A stretch of DNA of 64,000 nucleotides from a virus (taxonomy: Duplodnaviria > Caudoviricetes): IMG/VR virus record IMGVR_UViG_3300025924_000001, positions 47,865 through 111,864 of that record; one strand, written 5' to 3'. Numbering within the stretch: position 1 is the stretch's first letter; each line of letters starts with the position of its first letter. Below are positions 2,806-19,927 of the stretch, piece after piece. Below the pieces are notes generated by a model. That model made no database searches and had not been told where the DNA came from. It saw only the letters and a program-made list of their open reading frames with translations. The position numbers and the translations under genes were made by a program.

Positions 2806-5706
2806 CTACTTGAAACCGGTCATCTTCTTCAGCTCCCGCCACGCAACTTCCCGCTGCATCGGGTCGGGGTCGTTCCGCCACTGGTGGTGCAGTGCCTGGA
2901 ACACGGACTCCTGAGCGCGCTCCGCGCGGCTCACGGACGGCAGCACCTCCGGTGCCACCGCCTTGTTGATCTGGTCGAACGCGACGCCGCGGTAGGGACC
3001 CACCGGGTCCGGCTGCTCGGCGAGCGCCTCCAGCTTCTTGCGGGTCTTCTTGAGGTCCTTCCGAAGGTCGGCGACCTCGGCGTCTCGGGCCGCGTTGACG
3101 TCGGCGACGGCCTTCGTGATCATCTCCTGGACGGTCACGAGGTCGAGGGTGACGGCCTTGGTGACCTCGGTCGTGACGGTCTTCTCGGCCTCAACGACCT
3201 CGGTCGCCGCGGCCTCGACCCTCACCTTCTTGGGCTTGGCGGCCTTGGCCGCACCGGCACCGTGCGGTGCTGGGCCGCCGACCCCCACCGGCACCGGACG
3301 AGAGCCCGGCAGCGAGCCGCCGTAGGGGCTGCCGCTGGGCGCGGTTGGGCAGAGGTCGGGGAAGGTCTGCGCGATGTGGTCGTGCATGGCCAGCATGGCC
3401 TGCCGCGCGTTGTCCTTCATCGCGTTGGTGTAGTAGGTGCGGGTGGGGACGCCGGTCACCGACGGTGGGCTCACCGGTCGCATCGGGTTGCTGCCGCTCG
3501 CGGGTGTCTCGGAGGCGCGACCCGCGGTGAGGTAGCCGTGGTTGAACTGCGCCGCGGAGATCGACCCGAACGGGTTGGGCGCGGTGTTGGGGCCGCCGTG
3601 GCCCGGCGACGCGGCCTCGTGACCGGCCGTGACGAGCGGACGGTTGTAGGAGCGGCCGTTCATCGAGCCCGGGGCGGGGAAGGTGCCGGGACCGGGGTTC
3701 GCGTCGCGGAACTCCTTGTACAGCTCCGACTTCGCCTCGAGCAGGTAGCGCGGGTCGGTTCCCTTGAGGGTGACCACGTGCTGCCACAGGTCGTTCGCCT
3801 TGCGGGCCTGGTCGAGCGGCGCGGACGCGGCCATCTCGAAGGCCTTGCGCTGCCAGTGGTTCGGGTCGAGGCTGGACAGGTCGTAGCTGGGGTAGCTCTT
3901 CGCGACGTCGTCTGGGTGGAAGCACGGGCAGGTCAGGTCGTGCAGCACGCCGTAGTCCGCGGGAACGTTGAGCATCTTCAGCCGCATCGACGCCGAGCCC
4001 TCGTGGTCGCCGGGGAAGATGAGGTCCGCGGTCTTCACGCTCGAGTCGGGAACGGTGGGCAGCTTCGCGTCGTGCTCGAGGGCCTCGATCGCGGGGCCGT
4101 CCGGCTCGCGGTGCGCCGGCACCGGGTCGGCGTCCTCGGTCTCCTCGACGCCGTCGGTGGGCGTCGCCTTCTTCTCGGCCTTCACCTTCTTGCCCTTGTG
4201 GCTCGCCCGGATCTTGCCGCCGGTGGCCTCGTCGTCATCCCCACCGTCGCCGTTCTCACCGCCGGCGGCCTTGACCTTGCTGTCCGCCTCCGGCAGGTAG
4301 CCGGGGTGGGCCTTGCCGCAGGACGGGCAGAACTTCTCGCCCTTGTCGAGCTGGTAGCCGCAGCCGAGGCACGTGAAGTCGTGGTTCTTCTTGACCGCGA
4401 GCGCGCCCTTGAGCTTGCCGCCGCACTCGGGGCAGAAGTTGTGCTCGGCGTGCAGGTTCGCCCCACAGCCGGGGCACATGACCTTGTCCTTCTTCTCGAC
4501 GGTGACGACCTTCTCGACGGTCGGCTCGACGGCCTTCTCGCCGTCGTCGCACTTCTCCGTCTCGTTCTCGTCCTCGTCGTCGGCCTTGGCGCTGCCGGCG
4601 CCGCCGGTCCCGGCACCGGCGGTGCCGCCGCCGGCCTCACCCGCGCCGGCGCTGCCGCCGCTCGTGCCGCTGCCGCCACCGGTGGAGCCGGCCTTCGCCT
4701 CGTCGGGCTCCTCGTCCTTCGTGGCGTCCGGCTCGTCCATGGTCTTCGCCTCGGTGACGTCGTCCTCGACGGTGTCGACGTCGATCACCTTCTCGCTGTC
4801 GCTCATGCCGAGCTCCTTCTTCCAGCTCTCGGGGAGCCGGGCCACGAAGGCGGCACCCTTGCGTCGGGCGATGCGAATGATGCTGCTCTTCAGGTCCTCG
4901 GGCGACTTGTTGTCGTCGCCGGCGCGGCCGATCGAGGTCGCGGCGTCGTGCACGTCCTGAGGGGTGACGATGGGGAAGGAGCGGTCGGTGCCCGCGAAGT
5001 CACCGGCGGGGATCGCGTCGCGATCGGTGCCGCCACCCACGTTGGGGTCCACGTCGCGCTTCACGACGCCCTCGTGACCGGTGAGTGCCTTAGCGACGTC
5101 GGCCGGGGTGACGCGCTCACCCTCGTACGTGACGCCGCGCTTCACGACGATCTCGGTGACGTCGCCCAGCATCTTGCCCACGAACTCGGGGTCACCGTCG
5201 GCGCCGGCGGCCTTCACGAGCTGGAACTTCGAGTTGAAGTTGCTGCCGCGGTCGACGAGGCTGATCTCACTGATCTTGGTGAGGCCGTCGCGGCGGCCGC
5301 GGATGATGCCGTTCATGGCCTTGCCGGTGGGGTCCGGCACGATGTCCGGGTGCGTGATGCCCACCGAGTAGCAGGTCAGGACGCCCTTGCGAACGAGCTC
5401 CTTGGCCACGGGCTCCACGACGAGGGACTTGACCCAGTGCCCGTCGGGGGTCGCCTCCACCTCGAGGCCCCTGCCGGCCGGGTCCCGGCGAGCCTGGTGC
5501 TGCACCCGCACGTTGCCGCCGGTCTCGAGCCACTCGTGGATCGCCTTCGCGGACCAGTCCTGGTCGACGATCTGCAGGTCGCTGTCGACGGTGCCGTCGG
5601 TGGCCTTGCCGTAGACGATGAGGTCGCCGTCGGCCGTCTCCTCGGTCTTCTCGATGGGGAACGAGAAGTAGGTCAGCTCGCCGTCGGGGGTGAGGGTTGC
5701 GGCCAC
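2806..5706 (-). CDS. Prohead maturation protease/scaffold fusion with double zinc ribbon
   Basis: N-terminal HK97-like protease motifs (YGKAT...DSDLQIVD, NVRVQH, YSVG, EISLVDR); CPGCG/CPECG/CLGCG/CPSCG ribbons; acidic linker; C-terminal coiled coil; lies between portal and capsid. Confidence 0.8.
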   Translation of the reverse strand: MAATLTPDGELTYFSFPIEKTEETADGDLIVYGKATDGTVDSDLQIVDQDWSAKAIHEWLETGGNVRVQHQARRDPAGRGLEVEATPDGHWVKSLVVEPVAKELVRKGVLTCYSVGITHPDIVPDPTGKAMNGIIRGRRDGLTKISEISLVDRGSNFNSKFQLVKAAGADGDPEFVGKMLGDVTEIVVKRGVTYEGERVTPADVAKALTGHEGVVKRDVDPNVGGGTDRDAIPAGDFAGTDRSFPIVTPQDVHDAATSIGRAGDDNKSPEDLKSSIIRIARRKGAAFVARLPESWKKELGMSDSEKVIDVDTVEDDVTEAKTMDEPDATKDEEPDEAKAGSTGGGSGTSGGSAGAGEAGGGTAGAGTGGAGSAKADDEDENETEKCDDGEKAVEPTVEKVVTVEKKDKVMCPGCGANLHAEHNFCPECGGKLKGALAVKKNHDFTCLGCGYQLDKGEKFCPSCGKAHPGYLPEADSKVKAAGGENGDGGDDDEATGGKIRASHKGKKVKAEKKATPTDGVEETEDADPVPAHREPDGPAIEALEHDAKLPTVPDSSVKTADLIFPGDHEGSASMRLKMLNVPADYGVLHDLTCPCFHPDDVAKSYPSYDLSSLDPNHWQRKAFEMAASAPLDQARKANDLWQHVVTLKGTDPRYLLEAKSELYKEFRDANPGPGTFPAPGSMNGRSYNRPLVTAGHEAASPGHGGPNTAPNPFGSISAAQFNHGYLTAGRASETPASGSNPMRPVSPPSVTGVPTRTYYTNAMKDNARQAMLAMHDHIAQTFPDLCPTAPSGSPYGGSLPGSRPVPVGVGGPAPHGAGAAKAAKPKKVRVEAAATEVVEAEKTVTTEVTKAVTLDLVTVQEMITKAVADVNAARDAEVADLRKDLKKTRKKLEALAEQPDPVGPYRGVAFDQINKAVAPEVLPSVSRAERAQESVFQALHHQWRNDPDPMQREVAWRELKKMTGFK

Positions 5707-5721: not shown

Positions 5722-8700
5722 TCAGTCCGTCGTCTTGTTGAGGTGATCGCTGCCGTGGTGAATCTGGAACGAGTGCGCCTCGTCCCACGGCCCGACCACG
5801 GAGTGGACGGTGCCGACGTACGCGTTGAGGGGCTTGCCGAGGCGCTGGGCGGCCAGGGCGCGGTGGTGACCGTCGATCACCTTGAGCTTGGGGTCACCGG
5901 GGGTGTCGACGAGGATCGCGGGGTGCAGGGTTTCGCCGGCCCTCAGTCGCTCCACGAAGCGGTCGACGGCGGCGGCCTCGTGGTGAGCCGCCCACCGAGC
6001 CTCGTTGCTGAAGTCGAGCAGGCTCGTGGGGACGTCGGTGGGGCCAACCCACCTCGCGTCGTCAACCCACGCGTAGCCCTCAGCGCTGAAGTTCCGGCTC
6101 ATCAAGGCCGCGACCTCGTCGGCGGTCGCCGATCGCGTCCCATCCAGGTAGGTGTCTCGACCCAGCGCGCTGAGCACGAGCTGCAGGTCGTCACGGAGCT
6201 CGGCGCGAACCGAGGGGTTGTCGACCAGGTGAGCCGGGTCCCACCACGCGAGCGCCTCAACCTGGTCCCCGTCGGGGTCGTCGGGGTTGGTGACGCGGTC
6301 GCGGCCGTCGAAGATCGGCACGTCGGCCTCGGACGCAACCTCGTAGACGAAGCCCAGCCAGCGACCGCTCTCCGTTCCCCAACCGGGAACGAACCGCCCG
6401 ACGGGGAGGACGCAGCCGGTCTCCTCCTGCCACTCCCGAACCGCGGCGCTGCGCGGCTGCTCACCGGGTTCCAGGCAGCCGCCGGGAAACTCCCACGTGC
6501 CGGCGGCCCGGTCGGGCGGCTCAGTTCCGACGAGGTCGGACACGCTCTGGTCACCGTAGGGCACGTCGTGGCTGATGGAGCCGTCGGCGTGGGACCACCA
6601 GTCACCGCTGTCCAGCCCCCACGCGAGCGGCAGACCGCAGGGGCAGTGCGTGGGACCAACCGCGCGCTGCAGCATGAGCACGCGACCGGTGTCGGCGGCG
6701 CGCACCGCGAGCCCGGCGGCGACGCAGGCGCCCTTGGTCGCGGTGCGACCCTCCCACCGGTCGCACACGTCGATCAGGTCGATCGAGCCCCACACGAGGT
6801 CGCACTCGTGGGTGTCGAGGTGGAACATCACGCAGGTGCCGCAGGATCGAGCGCGGCTCTCAGCCGGCCGGTAGTGAACCGACTCCTTGGACACCTTGAC
6901 GCGCTTGCCGAGATCGCTCACGCTCGGCGCGCGGCCCCGGTCGTTCACGTCACCGGGAACGTCGCTGATCGCGGCCTGGCCGGCGCCGTGGCCACCCTGC
7001 GGCCAGTAGCCAGTGGGTCGCGCGTCGACGTCGGTTTGGTGGCCCTGGGTCAGGGGTACCCGGTCGTCGCGACCGCCGGAGGGGTGATGCGCTTGAGATC
7101 GGTCGGAACCATCGTAGAAGCCACCCATGTAGCCGTTGGGCGGCTGTGAGGTCCACCGTGGGGGCTCACCCCCGGCCGTGCCTCCCGGGACCCCACCGGG
7201 CACCTCGGTGCCGTCTCCCAGGTGCCGGACCGGGGATCGACCGCCGCCGCCGGCCGCGTTGAGCGGCACGGCCGAGTCGATCCAGCTCTCCTGACCGTTG
7301 AGGCTGACCACGCGGCGGGTCGCCTTGACCACGCGGATCGCGTCGTCGATCTCCAGGCCCTCAGCCAGGTGCTGAGCGATGCGAGCGAGCGCCGCCTGGT
7401 TGACGTTCCGCGGCACCCACGTGCTGACCTGCCGGCCCTTCTTGACGTGACGGCTCAAGGCCTCGAGCTCGCTGCTCACGGCCTTCGCGAGGGACGCCGC
7501 GTCCGCCTTCTTTGCGGGCGCGGCGGCCTGCGGCTTGGCCGCGGAGCGCGGCGGCGTCTTCTGGTCGCCGGTCGCCGAGGCGTGACCCGGCGTCTCGGGG
7601 TGCTGCGGTGCCGCTGCCTGGGTCGGAACGTCGGCCTGGCCGGTGCTCTGGGTCTGGGCGGTGCCGGTCGCGGTGACCGGCAGCTCCGGCTTCAGGCCCG
7701 ACAGGGAGAGCTGGCCGGGGTCGCCGACACCGGGCTCGTCGGTCGTGCCAGCGGTGACCGCACCGAACGGCACGGGACCGTTCTTGCTGAGGAAGACGGG
7801 GCCGCTCGTCTCCGGTAGGCCCCACGGTTGCAGGTTGAGCTTGTCGCGGGCCTCGTCGACGCTGCGCAGCCCGTTCTCGACCTGCTTGATGAGCAGGTCG
7901 GTGATGAGGGCCTCGTCCTCCTCCGCCTCGAGGCCCTCGAAGACGAACTGCATGTCGTCCTGGCCACAGACGTACTCGAGGATGTTGTTGATGATGTCCG
8001 CGATGAACATGAGCGTCGGCTTGGTTGCCTTGCGCTCGCCCACGTTCTCGGCCATCTTCGCCATCTGGTGGGACGCGCCGGGCGACATCGACGTGCTGAC
8101 CTTGGGGGCGATGCCCAGCTCCATGGGCATGATGTCGAACGCCATGCAGACCTGGGTCATGACGATCTCGTCGAACGCGTCGGCGAGCTGGACGCCGCGC
8201 TGCGGCTCCACCTTCGTCCCCGGCGGCAGAACAATGATCTTATGGTGCCAGGCGGGGTCGCCGGCGAACGCGTTGAGCGCGTCCTGCAGCTCCCGAATCT
8301 GGTTCGGCGTCATGTTCTCGTCGCCGGGCGACATGTAGACGGCCGGGACGGTGCCCTCACGGAAGTAGTCGAGCTGGTAGCCCTGCTTCTGCAGCCCGGA
8401 CAGAACGGGGATCATCGCGCGTTCGATGGGCGGGAAGCCGTACGGCGTCCACCGGCGAGGAACCATCGGCACATACAGCAGCTGGTCGCCCCGGAACTGA
8501 CCGACCTCGCTGCCGCGGAGGCCGCCATCCTGGATGTCCATGTCCGTCAGCATTTTGATGAAATCGCTGCGGGGGACGCCGTAGAGGTACTGCTGGTAGG
8601 CCGGCGCCGGCGGAGCCGGGTAGCCGCCGTGCATGTCGTAGAGCGGGCGGATGGTCGGGCCGCTGATCAGGTTCAGGCTGTCGAGGTCGCTGCCGAGCAG

Positions 8701-9348
8701 GCCCTTCCGCATGCCACGGCCGCGCTTCGGCCGGAGGAACAGGGACAGGGCGTCGAACACGAACACCTCCTCGAGGAAGGCGTCGATGAACGTGCTCCAG
8801 CTGTAGTAGTCCGGGTCGGGCCGCTTGAAGAACTTCTTGGCCTTGGCGCGGCGCTCACCGAAATCCTTGAACCACGCCTTGTCGCCGCGGTTTGCCTTGG
8901 CGGCCTCCTGCGTGGGCAGGATGTCCCACTCGAGGCCGCGGATCTCCGACTTGCGAAGCTGAATGCAGGCCCGGGCCACGGAGTAGAGATCGGCGAGGGT
9001 CCGCAGGGTACTGAAGCTAGCGAGCTTGAGGCCCTCCGAGCCGGGCGTGCCGACGGGGAGGTTCCACCCGACGCGGTACTCCTCGCGGCGAGGGTCGGCG
9101 CGGCCGGACGCGGGATCCGGCTCGTCGACCGGCACCGGCAGGATCGGGCTGAACGGCCCGAACGCGCCCTGCGTGAAGGTCGCGGTTGGCCGTGGCAGGA
9201 AGCCGGCGTAGGCGTTGGCGTAGCCGTGCTGGTCAGCCAGCTGCATCGCGAGCGGTGAGATCGCGCCGGTGCCCTGCGGCGGTGGCGTGGGTCGGGCGCC
9301 GCCGGGTGAGTACCGCGCGGCGCGCAGGATGGACCTAGTTGACGCCAC
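5722..9348 (-). CDS. Portal protein fused to HiPIP-like, NUDIX and ParB-like domains
   Basis: First ~530 aa portal-like (PYGFPPIE, YFREGTVP, CMAFDIMPMELG, G..SVDEAR..L.L.P); CGTC-x8-C-x12-CDRW; Nudix box GGCLEPGEQPRSAAVREWQEETG; C-terminal PAILV...VIDGHHR. Confidence 0.8.
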   Translation of the reverse strand: MASTRSILRAARYSPGGARPTPPPQGTGAISPLAMQLADQHGYANAYAGFLPRPTATFTQGAFGPFSPILPVPVDEPDPASGRADPRREEYRVGWNLPVGTPGSEGLKLASFSTLRTLADLYSVARACIQLRKSEIRGLEWDILPTQEAAKANRGDKAWFKDFGERRAKAKKFFKRPDPDYYSWSTFIDAFLEEVFVFDALSLFLRPKRGRGMRKGLLGSDLDSLNLISGPTIRPLYDMHGGYPAPPAPAYQQYLYGVPRSDFIKMLTDMDIQDGGLRGSEVGQFRGDQLLYVPMVPRRWTPYGFPPIERAMIPVLSGLQKQGYQLDYFREGTVPAVYMSPGDENMTPNQIRELQDALNAFAGDPAWHHKIIVLPPGTKVEPQRGVQLADAFDEIVMTQVCMAFDIMPMELGIAPKVSTSMSPGASHQMAKMAENVGERKATKPTLMFIADIINNILEYVCGQDDMQFVFEGLEAEEDEALITDLLIKQVENGLRSVDEARDKLNLQPWGLPETSGPVFLSKNGPVPFGAVTAGTTDEPGVGDPGQLSLSGLKPELPVTATGTAQTQSTGQADVPTQAAAPQHPETPGHASATGDQKTPPRSAAKPQAAAPAKKADAASLAKAVSSELEALSRHVKKGRQVSTWVPRNVNQAALARIAQHLAEGLEIDDAIRVVKATRRVVSLNGQESWIDSAVPLNAAGGGGRSPVRHLGDGTEVPGGVPGGTAGGEPPRWTSQPPNGYMGGFYDGSDRSQAHHPSGGRDDRVPLTQGHQTDVDARPTGYWPQGGHGAGQAAISDVPGDVNDRGRAPSVSDLGKRVKVSKESVHYRPAESRARSCGTCVMFHLDTHECDLVWGSIDLIDVCDRWEGRTATKGACVAAGLAVRAADTGRVLMLQRAVGPTHCPCGLPLAWGLDSGDWWSHADGSISHDVPYGDQSVSDLVGTEPPDRAAGTWEFPGGCLEPGEQPRSAAVREWQEETGCVLPVGRFVPGWGTESGRWLGFVYEVASEADVPIFDGRDRVTNPDDPDGDQVEALAWWDPAHLVDNPSVRAELRDDLQLVLSALGRDTYLDGTRSATADEVAALMSRNFSAEGYAWVDDARWVGPTDVPTSLLDFSNEARWAAHHEAAAVDRFVERLRAGETLHPAILVDTPGDPKLKVIDGHHRALAAQRLGKPLNAYVGTVHSVVGPWDEAHSFQIHHGSDHLNKTTD

Positions 9349-14622: not shown

Positions 14623-15466
<844 letters not shown>

Positions 15467-16786: not shown

Positions 16787-18535
16787 TCACCCCTCCCACG
16801 GCCACCGCCCCGCCTGCCGGTCCTCCCACGGCCACCGCCCCGCCTGCCGGGCCTCGAGGGTCGGGATCAGACCGAACGTCGCGTCGGTCAGGCCGCCGAG
16901 CTCGTAGCGGTTGGTGCCCGGCTGCGTCGGCAGCGCGGACGCCGTGTAGGCGGCGACGTTGAAGGCGTAGATCGGCACGCCGCGGGGCGCCGAGGCGTCG
17001 ACGTCACCGATGTGGTAGCCGTGCATGACGTTGCCGAACGTCTGCAGGTCGGTGAGGATGATGACCCGTCGGTGGTCGTCCCGCAGGGTCTCGCTCACGG
17101 CCCGGGCGATCTCGGTGCCGCCGCCGACGCTGCCGATGCTCTTCCGGAACGTCTCCACGGCCCGCAGCAGGCTCGTGCCGCGGTCGACGCCGGTGACGTG
17201 GAACTGCCGGTTCGCGAAGCCCCACAGGTCGACGCCGGCGGGGTTCCGGATCTTCAGGGCGAGCCCAAAGATCGCGGCCGCGGTCGCGTAGTCCATCTTC
17301 GACTTGCTGGACAGCTCGCCGTAGGTCATCGAACCGGAGGTGTCGACGAGCACGAGCGTCCGCCCGTCGAGGATCGGCACGTTCGCGAGCGAGTGGCTCA
17401 GGGCCTGCTCCAGGGCGTGACCCCACCGCAGGGACTGCACCTCCCGGTAGGCGGACCAGAACCGGAACGGCAGTTGCCGGCTCCGCTTGACCTGCTCCGG
17501 GTCGGCGAGCCGCGTGATCAGCGGCCCGGCCACGGAGTCCGGGACCCCGGCCTCGTCGAGGTTGCGAAGGTTCCGCAGCAGGGCCATGTAGCCCATGGTC
17601 GGTGCGGCGAGCTGCCAGATCTCGGCGTTGGTGATCGGTTCAACCCTGGTCGGCTTCTCACCGAGCCACGGCTTGAGCCACTCCCACTGCCCGACCATCG
17701 CACCCTGGATCAGGTCCAGGGAGACCTGGTTGCCTCGCAGGGCACCCCAGGCGAGCTCGTGCCGCTCGTCGGGCGCGTAGCGCGACAGGGTGTGCCGCAG
17801 GTGGACCTTGGTCAGGGACTCCGGCGGCTCCGCGTCGTCGCGACCCTGCCGCGCTGTGATCGCCCACCGGAACAGGTCGTCCTGCCACGAGCGCTCGGCA
17901 CCGGGGACGCGGACGTTCGCGTGGGTCAGCTCGAGCACGTCACCGAACCGGACGGCCTTGGCCTCACCGTCGTAGCGCAGGAACGCGGCCTCGTCGTAGA
18001 GGCGGGTGACGGCGTCGGCGACGCCGCGCTTGACCGGCTTCGGCAGCCGGAGCTGCGCGGTGCCGTCGTCGCGGATGACGCCCCAGCGGTGCTTCCAGTA
18101 GGCGAGCAGCTCGCCGGGCTCGTCCGCGCGCTGCAGGACGGACGTGATGAGCTCGCGGTTGCCGTCACCAACCTTGCCGGCAGCGAGCCGCGCGTGCACG
18201 GCCTCCGCGGCGAGCAGCAGGGACGCGGTGCGGATGTTGCCCGGGCCGCGCAGCCAGGAGAGGAAGGCACGCACCCACGGCCACGTCTCATCGTCGGTCG
18301 CGAGGCCGCGCACGAGCTCGCGGAGCCGGTCCGTGCCCTCATCCGCGGTCTCGTAGAACGCCTTCTCGCCGGCGAACCGCGTGGTTGCGCGGAGGAACAG
18401 CTCCGATCGAGCGTCGCGCGTGTAGCCCGGGGCGCCCTCGTGGGTCACGGTGTCGGGGGTCGAGCTGACCGTCCGCAGCGGGCCGCCGGGGGCGACGCGT
18501 CGCGGCTGGGTCGCTGCCTTGTTGAATCCTGCCAC
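16787..18535 (-). CDS. rsr: TROVE/vWA domain protein (Ro60 orthologue)
   Basis: THEGAPG...SELF, QRADEPGE, PKPVKRG, MGYMALLRNLRN, SRQLPFRF, vWA MIDAS LVDTSGSM, GGT, IILTD; GAGGAG SD before GTG at 18535. Confidence 0.93.
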   Translation of the reverse strand: MAGFNKAATQPRRVAPGGPLRTVSSTPDTVTHEGAPGYTRDARSELFLRATTRFAGEKAFYETADEGTDRLRELVRGLATDDETWPWVRAFLSWLRGPGNIRTASLLLAAEAVHARLAAGKVGDGNRELITSVLQRADEPGELLAYWKHRWGVIRDDGTAQLRLPKPVKRGVADAVTRLYDEAAFLRYDGEAKAVRFGDVLELTHANVRVPGAERSWQDDLFRWAITARQGRDDAEPPESLTKVHLRHTLSRYAPDERHELAWGALRGNQVSLDLIQGAMVGQWEWLKPWLGEKPTRVEPITNAEIWQLAAPTMGYMALLRNLRNLDEAGVPDSVAGPLITRLADPEQVKRSRQLPFRFWSAYREVQSLRWGHALEQALSHSLANVPILDGRTLVLVDTSGSMTYGELSSKSKMDYATAAAIFGLALKIRNPAGVDLWGFANRQFHVTGVDRGTSLLRAVETFRKSIGSVGGGTEIARAVSETLRDDHRRVIILTDLQTFGNVMHGYHIGDVDASAPRGVPIYAFNVAAYTASALPTQPGTNRYELGGLTDATFGLIPTLEARQAGRWPWEDRQAGRWPWEG

Positions 18536-18568
18536 GTTCCTGACTCCTCTTCCTCGTTGGTCAGACAA

Positions 18569-18612
18569 CACGAGACCCTCAGCTCGACAGGGAGTGAGCT
18601 GAGGGTCTCGTG
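18569..18612 (-). terminator. 17-bp perfect hairpin between the RNA array and ro60
   Basis: cacgagaccctcagctc / gagctgagggtctcgtg, followed by TTGTCT on the minus strand. Confidence 0.6.
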
Positions 18613-18684
18613 GTGGTGTGGTTCACCCCGTCACGGGTCAACCACGGTGCTCGTCACGGCGACTGATTGGACGAGGTCACGCCG

Positions 18685-18758
18685 TTGCGGGGACGGGATT
18701 TGAACCCGCGACCTGTGGGTTATGAGCCCAACGCGCTACCGAGCTGCGCCACCCCGCT
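18685..18758 (-). tRNA. tRNA-fMet (CAU), initiator-type
   Basis: Cloverleaf; GGG-CTCATAA-CCC anticodon arm with three G-C pairs; unpaired 1:72; T loop TTCAAAT; no encoded CCA. Confidence 0.9.
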
Positions 18759-18774: not shown

Positions 18775-18860
18775 GACCGGGACGAGACCTGAGGTTGACG
18801 ATCGGCAATGAGGCGCAACCAATTTGCGAAGTAGCCGGTCGTCAGCGCACCGTCCCGGTC
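18775..18860 (-). ncRNA. Y RNA-like unit Y1 (short payload)
   Basis: Terminal stem, GGTGCG, inner stem ending CGG, CTACTTC, payload hairpin, GGTCTC; scaffold shared with Y2-Y5; adjacent to ro60. Confidence 0.7.
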
Positions 18861-18870
18861 GCTCACGAGG

Positions 18871-18959
18871 TTCACCACGAGACCGGAGGTTGGCTGACGG
18901 ACCGTCGCTACCGATTAAGAGTCGATTGAAGTATCCGTCGGCCTTCGCACCGTGGTGAA
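18871..18959 (-). ncRNA. Y RNA-like unit Y2 carrying a Lys(CUU) anticodon stem-loop
   Basis: Same scaffold; payload ATCGA-CTCTTAA-TCGGT. Confidence 0.75.
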
Positions 18960-18976
18960 GATCATGTAGTTGTGGG

Positions 18977-19121
18977 TCGTCGCGAGACCGAGGCCGCTCA
19001 CGGTTGATTCAGTAACGTGCTACCGATTACACTACAGCCCGAGGGGCCGACGGGACTCGAACCCGTACCTCAACCTTACGAGGGTTGTATTGAAGTAGCC
19101 GCTCGCTTCGCACCGCGACGA
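18977..19121 (-). ncRNA. YrlA-like Y RNA Y3 with a complete permuted tRNA-Thr(CGU) domain
   Basis: Scaffold plus anticodon arm CAACC-CTCGTAA-GGTTG, T arm ACGGG-TTCGAGT-CCCGT, looped acceptor stem, D arm. Confidence 0.8.
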
Positions 19122-19133
19122 TGAAGTTGTGGC

Positions 19134-19268
19134 TCACCTCGAGACCGAAGCGCCGATCGGGGTATGCCGCTTGGCCGCTGCGGCTAACGACCGGGGTTGA
19201 GACCGGTCGATGGGATTCGAACCCACGATTCCACCAGGAAGTACCCGCTCAGCTTCGCACCGAGGTGA
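19134..19268 (-). ncRNA. YrlA-like Y RNA Y4
   Basis: Scaffold plus T arm GTGGG-TTCGAAT-CCCAT, looped acceptor stem CGACCGG/CCGGTCG, D arm. Confidence 0.8.
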
Positions 19269-19298
19269 AGTTGTCGTGAGGGGTTGCCCTCTCACTCG

Positions 19299-19372
19299 TG
19301 GCTACCGCTGGGTTCGAACCAGCGACCTCCCCGGTTTCAACGGGGCGCTCTCCCAGCCTGAGCTAGGCAGCC
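19299..19372 (-). tRNA. tRNA-Phe (GAA)
   Basis: Cloverleaf; CCCCG-TTGAAAC-CGGGG; T loop TTCGAAC. Confidence 0.88.
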
Positions 19373-19375
19373 AGG

Positions 19376-19478
19376 TGCACGATGCGGGGTCATCCCCCGC
19401 TTGAGCTCGTCTCATGGCCGAGCCCTTTCAGCGGTACAGGAACTCGAGTACTTGTCAGCTGAAGGTTCGCCGTCGTGC
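19376..19478 (-). ncRNA. Unidentified multibranch structured RNA
   Basis: Closing stem GCACGA/TCGTGC, long internal stem CCTTCAGC/GCTGAAAGG, hairpin GCGGGG-GATGA-CCCCGC; lies between two tRNAs. Confidence 0.4.
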
Positions 19479-19488
19479 CGGCACCCCG

Positions 19489-19559
19489 TACCCCACGCCG
19501 GGATTGAACCGGCGCCAGCCGCTTGAGGGGCGGCCGTGCTACCACTACACCAGTGGGGC
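19489..19559 (-). tRNA. tRNA-Glu (CUC) with C33
   Basis: Cloverleaf; GCCGC-CCCTCAA-GCGGC; T loop TTCAATC. Confidence 0.8.
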
Positions 19560-19563
19560 GTGC

Positions 19564-19680
19564 GTTGATGTTGCTAAGCTGAATAGTACCACCAGGTGGG
19601 AATTGAACCCCGACCGCCCGTACGTTGCGGCTCCATCCAGGAGGGAATTGAACCCCGACATCAGCTAGTTCAACATCAAC
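19564..19680 (-). ncRNA. Novel RNA with two tandem T-loop modules
   Basis: 10-bp terminal stem GTTGATGTTG/CAACATCAAC enclosing two copies of GTCGGGGTTCAATTCCC(T/A)CCTGG. Confidence 0.6.
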
Positions 19681-19705
19681 TTGCGACGGCGTACGACCGT
19701 CACCG

Positions 19706-19777
19706 CGCCGGAGACGGGGATTGAACCCGCGACCTCTCCCTCGACAGGGGAGCGCTCTTCCATTGAGCTACTCTGGC
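19706..19777 (-). tRNA. tRNA-Asp (GUC)
   Basis: Cloverleaf; CTCCC-CTGTCGA-GGGAG; G73; one acceptor-stem mismatch. Confidence 0.85.
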
Positions 19778-19781
19778 TTGA

Positions 19782-19927
19782 CCTCACCGAGACCGAGTGA
19801 TCGCTCCCGGTTCCTATTGACTCATGCTCTGCCAACTGAGCTACCGACTGCCTAGGCCGAAGGACGGGATTCGAACCCGTGACCCTGAGTTCCGCTGAAG
19901 TATCCGAGTGCGTTCGCACCGGTGAGG
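19782..19927 (-). ncRNA. YrlA-like Y RNA Y5
   Basis: Scaffold plus ACTCA/TGAGT anticodon-stem equivalent, T arm ACGGG-TTCGAAT-CCCGT, D arm GCTC-AGTTGGCA-GAGC. Confidence 0.8.

Follow-up and report, generated by a model that had tools for sequence, protein, structure and literature searches.

Anticodon-arm mimics on Y RNAs beside a phage rsr gene and their recurrence in related phages and actinobacterial chromosomes

The rsr locus and its Y RNA and tRNA array

The window, that is, the whole 64-kb stretch of DNA that was analysed, is rich in G+C and was taken from a virus record of 111,864 bp, which has terminal repeats. Its minus strand carries rsr, the gene of a Ro60 orthologue, and an array in which five Y RNAs (Y1–Y5) are interleaved with four tRNAs, all co-oriented with rsr (table 1). 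Read 5′ to 3′ along this strand, the order is Y5, tRNA-Asp, an element with twin T-loops, tRNA-Glu, a structured spacer, tRNA-Phe, Y4, Y3, Y2, Y1, tRNA-Met, a strong hairpin and finally rsr. All five Y RNAs share the strand of rsr and are found 240–1400 nt upstream of it, the proximity that is typical of YrlA-type RNAs. The four tRNAs are the only true tRNAs recognized by ARAGORN in the 111.9-kb genome.

The rsr reading frame is likely to start at position 18535 with the residues GVAGFNK. Its product shows 38–40% identity to proteins annotated as "Ro-like RNA binding protein" in Streptomyces, Gordonia and Arthrobacter phages, and ~44% identity to the chromosomal Rsr of Streptomyces. The structural genes of the phage are located downstream and encode a terminase, a portal protein fused to a NUDIX domain and a tail fibre. 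The portal fusion (1208 aa) has its NUDIX domain at the C-terminus and also includes a weak ParB-like segment. Between the terminase gene and the rsr module, a protein with LysM and Rpf-type transglycosylase domains is encoded, which fits an actinobacterial host. Genes for RtcB, an RNA ligase or a CCA-adding enzyme were not found in the phage genome, and the array had no close DNA relative in the phage collection searched. A simple scan detected neither a sigma-70-like promoter nor an intrinsic terminator in the array.

Table 1. Positions of the rsr gene, the RNA units and other elements in the window
Feature	Position	Strand	Basis
rsr, Ro60 orthologue with TROVE and VWA/MIDAS domains	16787..18535	-	Pfam TROVE E 5e-12 and weak VWA matches
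tRNA-Met(CAU)	18684..18758	-	ARAGORN; Rfam RF00005 60.8 bits
tRNA-Phe(GAA)	19298..19372	-	ARAGORN and Rfam RF00005
tRNA-Glu(CUC)	19488..19559	-	ARAGORN and Rfam RF00005
tRNA-Asp(GUC)	19705..19777	-	ARAGORN and Rfam RF00005
Y1, short Y RNA	18778..18857	-	unit finder; fold; conserved in L006 and L126
Y2, short rod Y RNA, Ro-site internal loop, apparent anticodon-arm mimic at apex	18873..18957	-	unit finder; fold
Y2 putative anticodon-arm mimic: stem AUCGA/UCGGU, 5 pairs including one G-U; loop CUCUUAA; triplet CUU	18910..18926	-	sequence
Y3, YrlA-like, predicted circularly permuted tRNA body on Ro-binding stalk	18978..19120	-	Rfam; covariation
Y3 putative anticodon-arm mimic: stem CAACC/GGUUG, 5 bp; loop CUCGUAA; triplet CGU	19071..19087	-	sequence
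Y3 rest of tRNA-like core	19017..19070	-	alignment to RF02553 positions 30-81; Levitt pair
Y3 variable loop AGGU	19070-19067	-	
Y3 T arm	19066-19050	-	
Y3 acceptor hairpin, 6 bp, 3-nt loop	19049-19035	-	
Y3 D arm, preceded by U8-A9	19032-19017	-	
Y4, YrlA-like with T, 7-bp acceptor and D arms	19135..19267	-	fold z -2.85; RF02553 weak full-length match, 12.5 bits
Y5, canonical YrlA-type Y RNA	19783..19926	-	RF02553 29.1 bits, positions 23-85; sequence
Twin T-arm element	19565-19690	-	
Structured spacer	19377-19478	-	
ACAACU(U/A)CA spacers ahead of Y4, Y3 and Y2, respectively	19275-19283, 19127-19135, 18965-18973	-	
Hairpin ahead of rsr	18568-18613	-	
Portal-NUDIX protein	5722-9348	-	
LysM/Rpf-type transglycosylase protein	14623-15327	-	

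Several smaller elements lie between the RNA genes. The element between tRNA-Asp and tRNA-Glu has a 10-bp closing stem (GUUGAUGUUG/CAACAUCAAC) and contains two near-identical T-arm-like hairpins (GGGG-UUCAAUU-CCC). A cloverleaf and a Ro handle are both absent from it, and the related locus L006 has a copy in synteny (~3070-3195). The spacer between tRNA-Glu and tRNA-Phe is composed of a closing stem and GC-rich hairpins, has no Y handle and is related to a sequence which follows tRNA-Glu in L006 (~2607-2715). A conserved spacer, ACAACU(U/A)CA, precedes Y4, Y3 and Y2, and similar spacers are also placed ahead of Y units in the distant loci L129, L131 and L140; it possibly serves for processing or forms a 3′ tail. 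Finally, a perfect 14-bp hairpin, which the simple terminator scan did not call, separates tRNA-Met from the ribosome-binding site of rsr, and the matching site of L006 is occupied by a hairpin of other sequence. It may act as an attenuator or as a processing site parting the RNA array from the rsr mRNA.

The Y units share a terminal stem of 7–10 bp, an internal loop with GUGC(GAAG) opposite GGUCU and a conserved YUAY-UUC motif, and their closing stems covary. The internal loop is the Ro site of the CGAA type known from Chen et al. 2014 (PMC4201824) and from the work on phiLo (PMC12135203). In Y2–Y4, the strand opposite GGUCU is GUGCGAAG, in which the CGAA core is kept and the upstream G is shifted by one base. 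The terminal stem, the GUGCGAAG/GGUCU internal loop and the YUAY-UUC motif make up the Ro-binding handle of the family, which Y2 and Y3 carry. Since these two RNAs adjoin rsr on the same strand, and since the handle is common to all five local units and to ~330 others, Y2 and Y3 are predicted to be partner RNAs of the phage Rsr.

Y1 combines the closing stem and the YUAY-UUC motif with a GUGC/GGUCU internal loop devoid of the CGAA core, and its apex is a 5-bp hairpin with a 5-nt loop, which is not anticodon-like. Y2 is a short unit of the YrlB type, without acceptor, T or D arm. Y3 begins its tRNA-like part with the anticodon arm and the variable loop, to which the T arm, the closed acceptor hairpin and, last, the D arm are added. 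In Y4, the respective slot is filled by a hairpin of 4 bp with a tetraloop, along with a linker of 2 nt, and resembles a V arm and not an anticodon arm, and in Y5 the equivalent of the anticodon stem continues into the stalk, so that a free anticodon arm is absent.

The closest known RNA is YrlA, a Y RNA of tRNA-like make-up to which bacterial Ro60/Rsr binds (Rfam RF02553; Chen et al. 2014, PMC4201824; Wang et al. 2018, bioRxiv 10.1101/312249). Shared with it are the location upstream of rsr on the same strand, the CGAA-type Ro site in the 5′/3′ stem, the conserved YUAY motif, and the permuted T arm, closed acceptor hairpin and D arm with the Levitt pair kept. On the contrary, the matches of the window units to the Rfam model are partial and below its gathering threshold of 69 bits (Y3, 32.9 bits over the T, acceptor and D arms; Y5, 29.1; Y4, 12.5), and the Ro motif is GUGCGAAG instead of GNCGAAG.

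Anticodon-arm hairpins and their place in the tRNA frame

The earlier note on this DNA had described, in Y2 and Y3, hairpins of 5 bp and 7 nt with a loop of the form C32-U33-NNN-A37-A38. Both are present on the minus strand where it had placed them, and they are the sole matches to a 5-pair stem with a CU-NNN-AA loop on both strands of the whole window. As ~1.4 such hairpins are expected by chance per 64 kb, it is their placement that is non-random and not their count: both are on the rsr strand, and each follows directly 3′ of the YUAY-UUC motif of a Y unit. Neither RNA is called a tRNA by ARAGORN or by the Rfam tRNA model, which reaches 24.3 bits in Y3, from the anticodon arm to the T arm, against a threshold of 29. 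As encoded, both lack a free acceptor end, and the sequence bears out the description of Y RNAs, here beside rsr, which display faithful copies of anticodon arms and have no usable acceptor end.

The further claim that the loops fold as 7-nt loops stands for Y2, whose hairpin is part of both the MFE and the centroid fold with pair probabilities of 0.89–0.97. For the Y3 of the window, local MFE folding speaks against it: a competing stem, in which the YUAY-UUC region pairs with the variable loop, is favoured by 2.3 kcal/mol, and the hairpin is left with a probability of ~0.05. The Y3-type hairpin is, however, the favoured one in the homologues L006 and L126 (0.4–0.84). Its formation in Y3 is suggested by these homologues and by covariation, thermodynamic folding alone not settling the matter. 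The absence of the Y3 hairpin from its MFE fold, along with the ~1.4 matches expected per 64 kb, is what one would also meet if the two hairpins had arisen by chance and had no common significance. Yet they occupy the homologous slot of two adjacent Y RNAs, and slot hairpin and frame recur in relatives (P ~1e-45). A chance origin is next to impossible to believe, and the comparative data have already ruled it out.

Topologically, the slot of the hairpin is that of the "V" stem-loop of Chen et al. 2014 (PMC4201824), who had already noted, ahead of the T arm of YrlA, a "less conserved V stem-loop". By its dimensions and its loop, the slot hairpin has every appearance of an anticodon arm. In Y3, it conforms to the tRNA format in having 5 bp, a 7-nt loop, U33, a purine at 37, a variable loop of 4–5 nt and a T arm. 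The base that precedes the T stem was compared with base 15 of the D-loop in 77 units, and the two were U:A in 31, C:G in 40 and other combinations in 6 (Fisher 1e-19); in Y3, the pair is A15:U48, the Levitt pair. From this covariation, the linker corresponds to a class I variable loop and the hairpin to tRNA positions 27–43, with the Ro stalk leaving between positions 26 and 27. Judged from its sequence, Y3, which holds the permuted T arm, closed acceptor and D arm together with this tertiary pair, is a complete circularly permuted tRNA body set on a Ro-binding stalk. Y2 has no such body.

The earlier note had also stated that typical YrlA lacks an anticodon loop. This is correct for the crystallised YrlA of Salmonella, in which the equivalent of the anticodon stem passes into the Ro stalk and which, according to the authors, has no such loop (bioRxiv 10.1101/312249), and it does not apply to the related branch of phages and actinobacteria, about half of whose T-arm units have the hairpin. 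Y3 differs from the Salmonella RNA in that the stalk departs between 26 and 27 and leaves a free anticodon arm of 5 bp and 7 nt. The structural reference of the field is, in other words, a YrlA without anticodon loop, whereas the actinobacterial and phage branch carries one.

A member of this actinobacterial branch with the same slot and the same loop frame is the YrlA of M. smegmatis, which, like that of Salmonella, is bound by Rsr in vivo (PMC4201824). The complement of its published YrlA-5′ probe reads UUAC-CA, a CU-UCU-AA loop, UGG and a 5-nt linker (PMC4201824), and its "V arm" is apparently the same anticodon-arm mimic. The slot hairpin is already contained in a published sequence, where it was drawn as a variable arm; its reading as an anticodon mimic was not found in the accessible text of the primary YrlA literature, to which the comparison was confined (the reviews of Sim and Wolin lie outside it). 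The M. smegmatis RNA differs from Y3 in its acceptor stem, which has 7 bp and is processed, compared to the 6 bp of the window.

This processing raises the question of charging. M. smegmatis YrlA is cut by RNase P and CCA-tailed in vivo (PMC4201824), and many Streptomyces-type units combine 7-bp acceptor hairpins with natural anticodons, as would be expected of precursors of a split tRNA-like molecule with an anticodon arm and a CCA end, which may be aminoacylated or titrate a synthetase. The window offers little for such a precursor, the acceptor hairpin of Y3 having 6 pairs with a 3-nt loop and Y2 having none. Moreover, the 5′ closing strand and the strand after the T arm pair no more than permuted controls, and pairs 1:72 and 2:71 do not match the identity of ThrRS. 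A chargeable product is very improbable. In algae and archaea, circularly permuted tRNA genes have the 3′ half before the 5′ half and are matured to functional, chargeable tRNAs. Y3 has its break at 26/27, a permuted order of arms and a closed 6-bp acceptor hairpin, and processing signals were not found in it; the strand after its D arm is unpaired with the 3′ strand of the anticodon arm. Other tRNA mimics, such as tmRNA and the viral 3′ tRNA-like structures (TYMV TLS), include mimicry of the anticodon domain but have a free CCA end, are aminoacylated, lack a Ro handle and are not arrayed.

Recurrence, loop rules and triplet turnover

Relatives were collected by Rsr-based and pattern-based searches with a stricter, loop-neutral pattern, a first loose scan of viral contigs having given mostly noise. 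This resulted in 206 unique Y units from viral and metagenomic contigs, 199 of which (<=175 nt) were classified, and 128 units from bacterial genomes. The slot hairpin is present in about half of the T-arm units among these ~330 related Y units of phages and bacteria. In detail, among the 125 viral T-arm units, 69 contain a hairpin with 4 or more bp and a 7-nt loop that ends 3–6 nt ahead of the T stem, compared to 9.6 in shuffles. The CU...AA frame is found in 22 of 42 clusters (52%) versus 0.28% of 94,843 background hairpins from the same loci (P ~3e-45), and short units without a T arm show it in 7 of 24 clusters (P ~5e-13). Covariation extends to each of the five stem pairs, with 69 cells in which both sides have changed, compared to 16 after shuffling; these pair counts were made on register-exact 17-mers preselected for pairing, and it is the surplus of hairpins relative to shuffles that provides independent evidence. 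When whole units were aligned with MAFFT, RNAalifold recovered the closing stem, the stalk and the T, acceptor and D helices, and missed the anticodon arm, whose region was misaligned. The excess over shuffles, the CU...AA enrichment and the covariation of the stem argue that the hairpin is under selection; to all appearance, the anticodon-arm mimic is a selected feature across actinobacterial phages and chromosomes while its triplet changes.

The loops follow the rules of real tRNAs. Among 109 distinct slot hairpins with U33, C32 is found in 89 and A38 in 93, and position 37 is A in 82, G in 16 and a pyrimidine in ~10%. G37 is tied to G36 (14 of 17 cases versus 2 of 92 otherwise; Fisher 5e-13), U36 is enriched (50/109, P 9e-9) and A34 is rare (2/109, P 5e-9). 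For 54 of 90 loops, a genuine tRNA with that anticodon has the very same loop, compared to 43.3 +/- 2.3 for permuted frames, the genuine loops being a strictly filtered set from the same sequences. Because the loops obey real tRNA rules, it can be argued that the triplet matters. The stems, in turn, are mostly built from the Y-specific UUC motif, and GCU and GUA triplets come with short variable loops, which argues that the arms are not simple copies of tRNA genes.

These data also bear on the possibility that the arm is a functionless relic, left over from an upstream tRNA or re-copied from neighbouring tRNA genes. According to a model cited in bioRxiv 10.1101/312249, YrlA-type RNAs derive from tandem tRNA transcripts, and a dimeric tRNA would predict an anticodon arm followed by a variable loop and a T arm, as observed. 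The location of the Y RNAs among tRNA genes and the excess of loops identical to genuine tRNA loops would also agree with a relic. A relic should decay, though, and the frame is kept across Rsr proteins of 40–45% identity, with covarying stems. The stems usually come from the YUAY-UUC motif and do not copy tRNA stems, the GCU and GUA arms have a short variable loop unlike those of the class II tRNA-Ser and tRNA-Tyr, and the same hairpin is found on short Y RNAs without T or D arm. A relic is, on these grounds, quite improbable.

The triplet itself turns over fast. The arrays of the window and of L134, where Rsr is 98% identical over the 200 residues present on that contig, differ by one base in 541 nt, and this base is position 34 of Y3. 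The Y3 triplet is CGU in the window, UGU in L134, CGC in L006 and GAU in L126, on a stem that is invariant in L134, L006, L126 and L238. For Y2, CUU of the window is replaced by GUU in L006 and by GCU, with a compensated stem, in L126, and the frame is lost in L238. The identities Lys for Y2 and Thr for Y3, which had been read from the window, are consequently not conserved. Within a family of 25 members that have one and the same stem, variation is confined to positions 34 and 35 (1.4 and 1.9 bits, respectively), and U is the last letter of 10 of its 11 triplets. A large actinobacterial and phage branch of Y RNAs carries, in sum, a complete anticodon arm with natural loop rules and a hypervariable triplet.

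None of 25 Y triplets equals the anticodon of a genuine tRNA in the same phage locus, whereas permutation gives 3.9 on average (P 0.006; 15 loci, of which several are related). A strong overlap of Y triplets and tRNA anticodons within loci had been an artefact, as ARAGORN had called the Y units themselves tRNAs. ARAGORN does so for 29 related Y units, in which the implied acceptor pairing is no better than in permuted controls, and the idea that they are cryptic ordinary tRNAs was rejected on this basis. Such calls cover the 5′ 70–75 nt of the Y RNA and are reported as tRNA-Ser(GCU), Asn, Ile and others (e.g., L147:3024-3098, L131:2248-2319 and L135:1747-1819). In actinophage and metagenome annotation, censuses of phage tRNAs may be inflated in this way.

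Two divergent forms were observed. In L093:865-1003 (reverse-strand coordinates), the tRNA-like body on the Ro handle has its arms in the normal order (D, anticodon, T) and a loop AAGGUAA, with A33 instead of U33. In the Mycobacterium phage Bxz1 (L248:1440-1720, upstream of gp220 Ro), the slot reads CUC, an AUUGCAA loop and GAG, a weaker form of the mimic with a 3-bp stem and a U33...A37-A38 loop, and the handle is different (GCCGAGAG / GCCGAAGG).

Possible functions of the mimics

Each mimic RNA could be a non-chargeable copy of one natural tRNA species, held on Rsr, and would act by competition, occupying a protein which reads the anticodon loop of the copied tRNA. The likeliest targets would be tRNA-cleaving toxins or defence nucleases, with the RNA as bait or as competitive inhibitor, followed by the enzymes that modify position 37 (the machineries for t6A and m1G). 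In the phage, the array would widen the small tRNA set (Met, Phe, Glu and Asp) with mimics of other tRNAs. Competitive, non-chargeable mimicry on Rsr, with nucleases or toxins as the likeliest targets, is proposed here tentatively, as a candidate explanation that falls short of being probable. A role of YrlA's tRNA-like domain as a possible competitive inhibitor of an anticodon nuclease was already proposed by Hughes et al. 2020 (PMC7790460). The anticodon rules including the avoidance of A34, the fast change of the triplet and its non-overlap with the phage tRNAs are compatible with specific mimicry or a decoy, and fit other roles too. Either way, the search for an effector is narrowed to proteins that read anticodon loops.

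Several points weigh against a decoy. A cleavable bait would be consumed by a catalytic nuclease, and neutral drift could account for the variation at 34 and 35 in case nothing but the frame is read by the partner. The signature U36-A37-A38 fits a substrate of the t6A enzyme at least as well as the bait of a nuclease. The lack of RtcB, RNA ligase and CCA-adding enzyme in the phage gives no sign of a theme of tRNA damage, and it also counts against a decoy that the predicted local fold of Y3 in the window does not prefer the hairpin thermodynamically. As for particular nucleases, PrrC, PARIS AriB and MazF-mt9 act on tRNA-Lys(UUU); the earlier note had named them as nucleases that cut tRNA-Lys, and the CUU of Y2, which has no UUU run, does not agree with that target.

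The main rival to the decoy is a generic tRNA mimicry with modification at position 37, in which the arm completes the L-shape, the Rsr-Y RNP is handled like a tRNA and the triplet drifts. The arm would then serve folding and modification by the t6A or m1G enzymes, as YrlA is modified by TruB and DusA, and docking on an effector which recognizes the tRNA shape and the loop frame and not the triplet. Positions 32, 33, 36, 37 and 38 are indeed conserved and 34 and 35 free, and the mimic is present in chromosomal loci of a housekeeping type. The t6A enzyme depends on U36 with A37, and TrmD on G36 with G37; the coupling of U36-A37 and G36-G37 in the loops matches these determinants. Against this, drift at position 34 would not reduce A34 to 2/109 in a non-decoding RNA, and the ~10% of loops with a pyrimidine at 37 are unable to carry t6A or m1G. 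Generic mimicry seems a possible, if somewhat unlikely, explanation.

A bolder version of the decoy proposal would be that Ro60/Rsr of Actinobacteria and their phages carries panels of isoacceptor-specific, non-chargeable decoys. The letters at 34 and 35 would track the local tRNA-cleaving toxins or defence nucleases, which the RNP would trap or inhibit and possibly pass, or their products, to PNPase. This version we regard as unlikely. Among known systems, some phages encode nuclease-resistant tRNAs, for instance the tRNA-Lys of T5 against PARIS and a tRNA-Tyr against retron/PtuAB. There too, phage RNAs supply anticodon arms against a host attack on the anticodon loop; those tRNAs are, however, complete, chargeable and decoding and replace the cleaved host tRNAs, whereas Y2 and Y3 are unchargeable as encoded and sit on a Ro60 handle. 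Thermus phage phiLo, as described in the portion of its report that was accessible, encodes a Ro60 and the RNAs Yrl1 and Yrl2, which form a complex with the host PNPase for which a counter-defence role was proposed (PMC12135203). The same text is similar to the present case in describing a phage-encoded Ro60 and two upstream Y-like RNAs recognized via a CGAA bulge, and differs in that this portion mentions no tRNA-like domain or anticodon arm and in that the protein lineage is distant (PMC12135203).

Among others, Streptomyces, Amycolatopsis, Kitasatospora and Nocardia have the mimic, together with the handle, at their chromosomal rsr loci, and it is not a phage-specific invention. The hairpin is present in 45 of 85 chromosomal T-arm units, 31 of these 45 with CU...AA, and Rsr is encoded within 8 kb at 49 of the 70 bacterial loci with the handle. 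As the mimics occur in ordinary chromosomal loci, phage counter-defence cannot be their original function. The typical context in Streptomyces is PhoX, three Y RNAs, rsr and TetR, as for instance in L316:2247-2625 and L281:5159-5539, where the three Y RNAs measure 138, 72 and 138 nt. In these PhoX/rsr loci of Streptomyces, the NNU triplet shown by the first Y unit differs between species.
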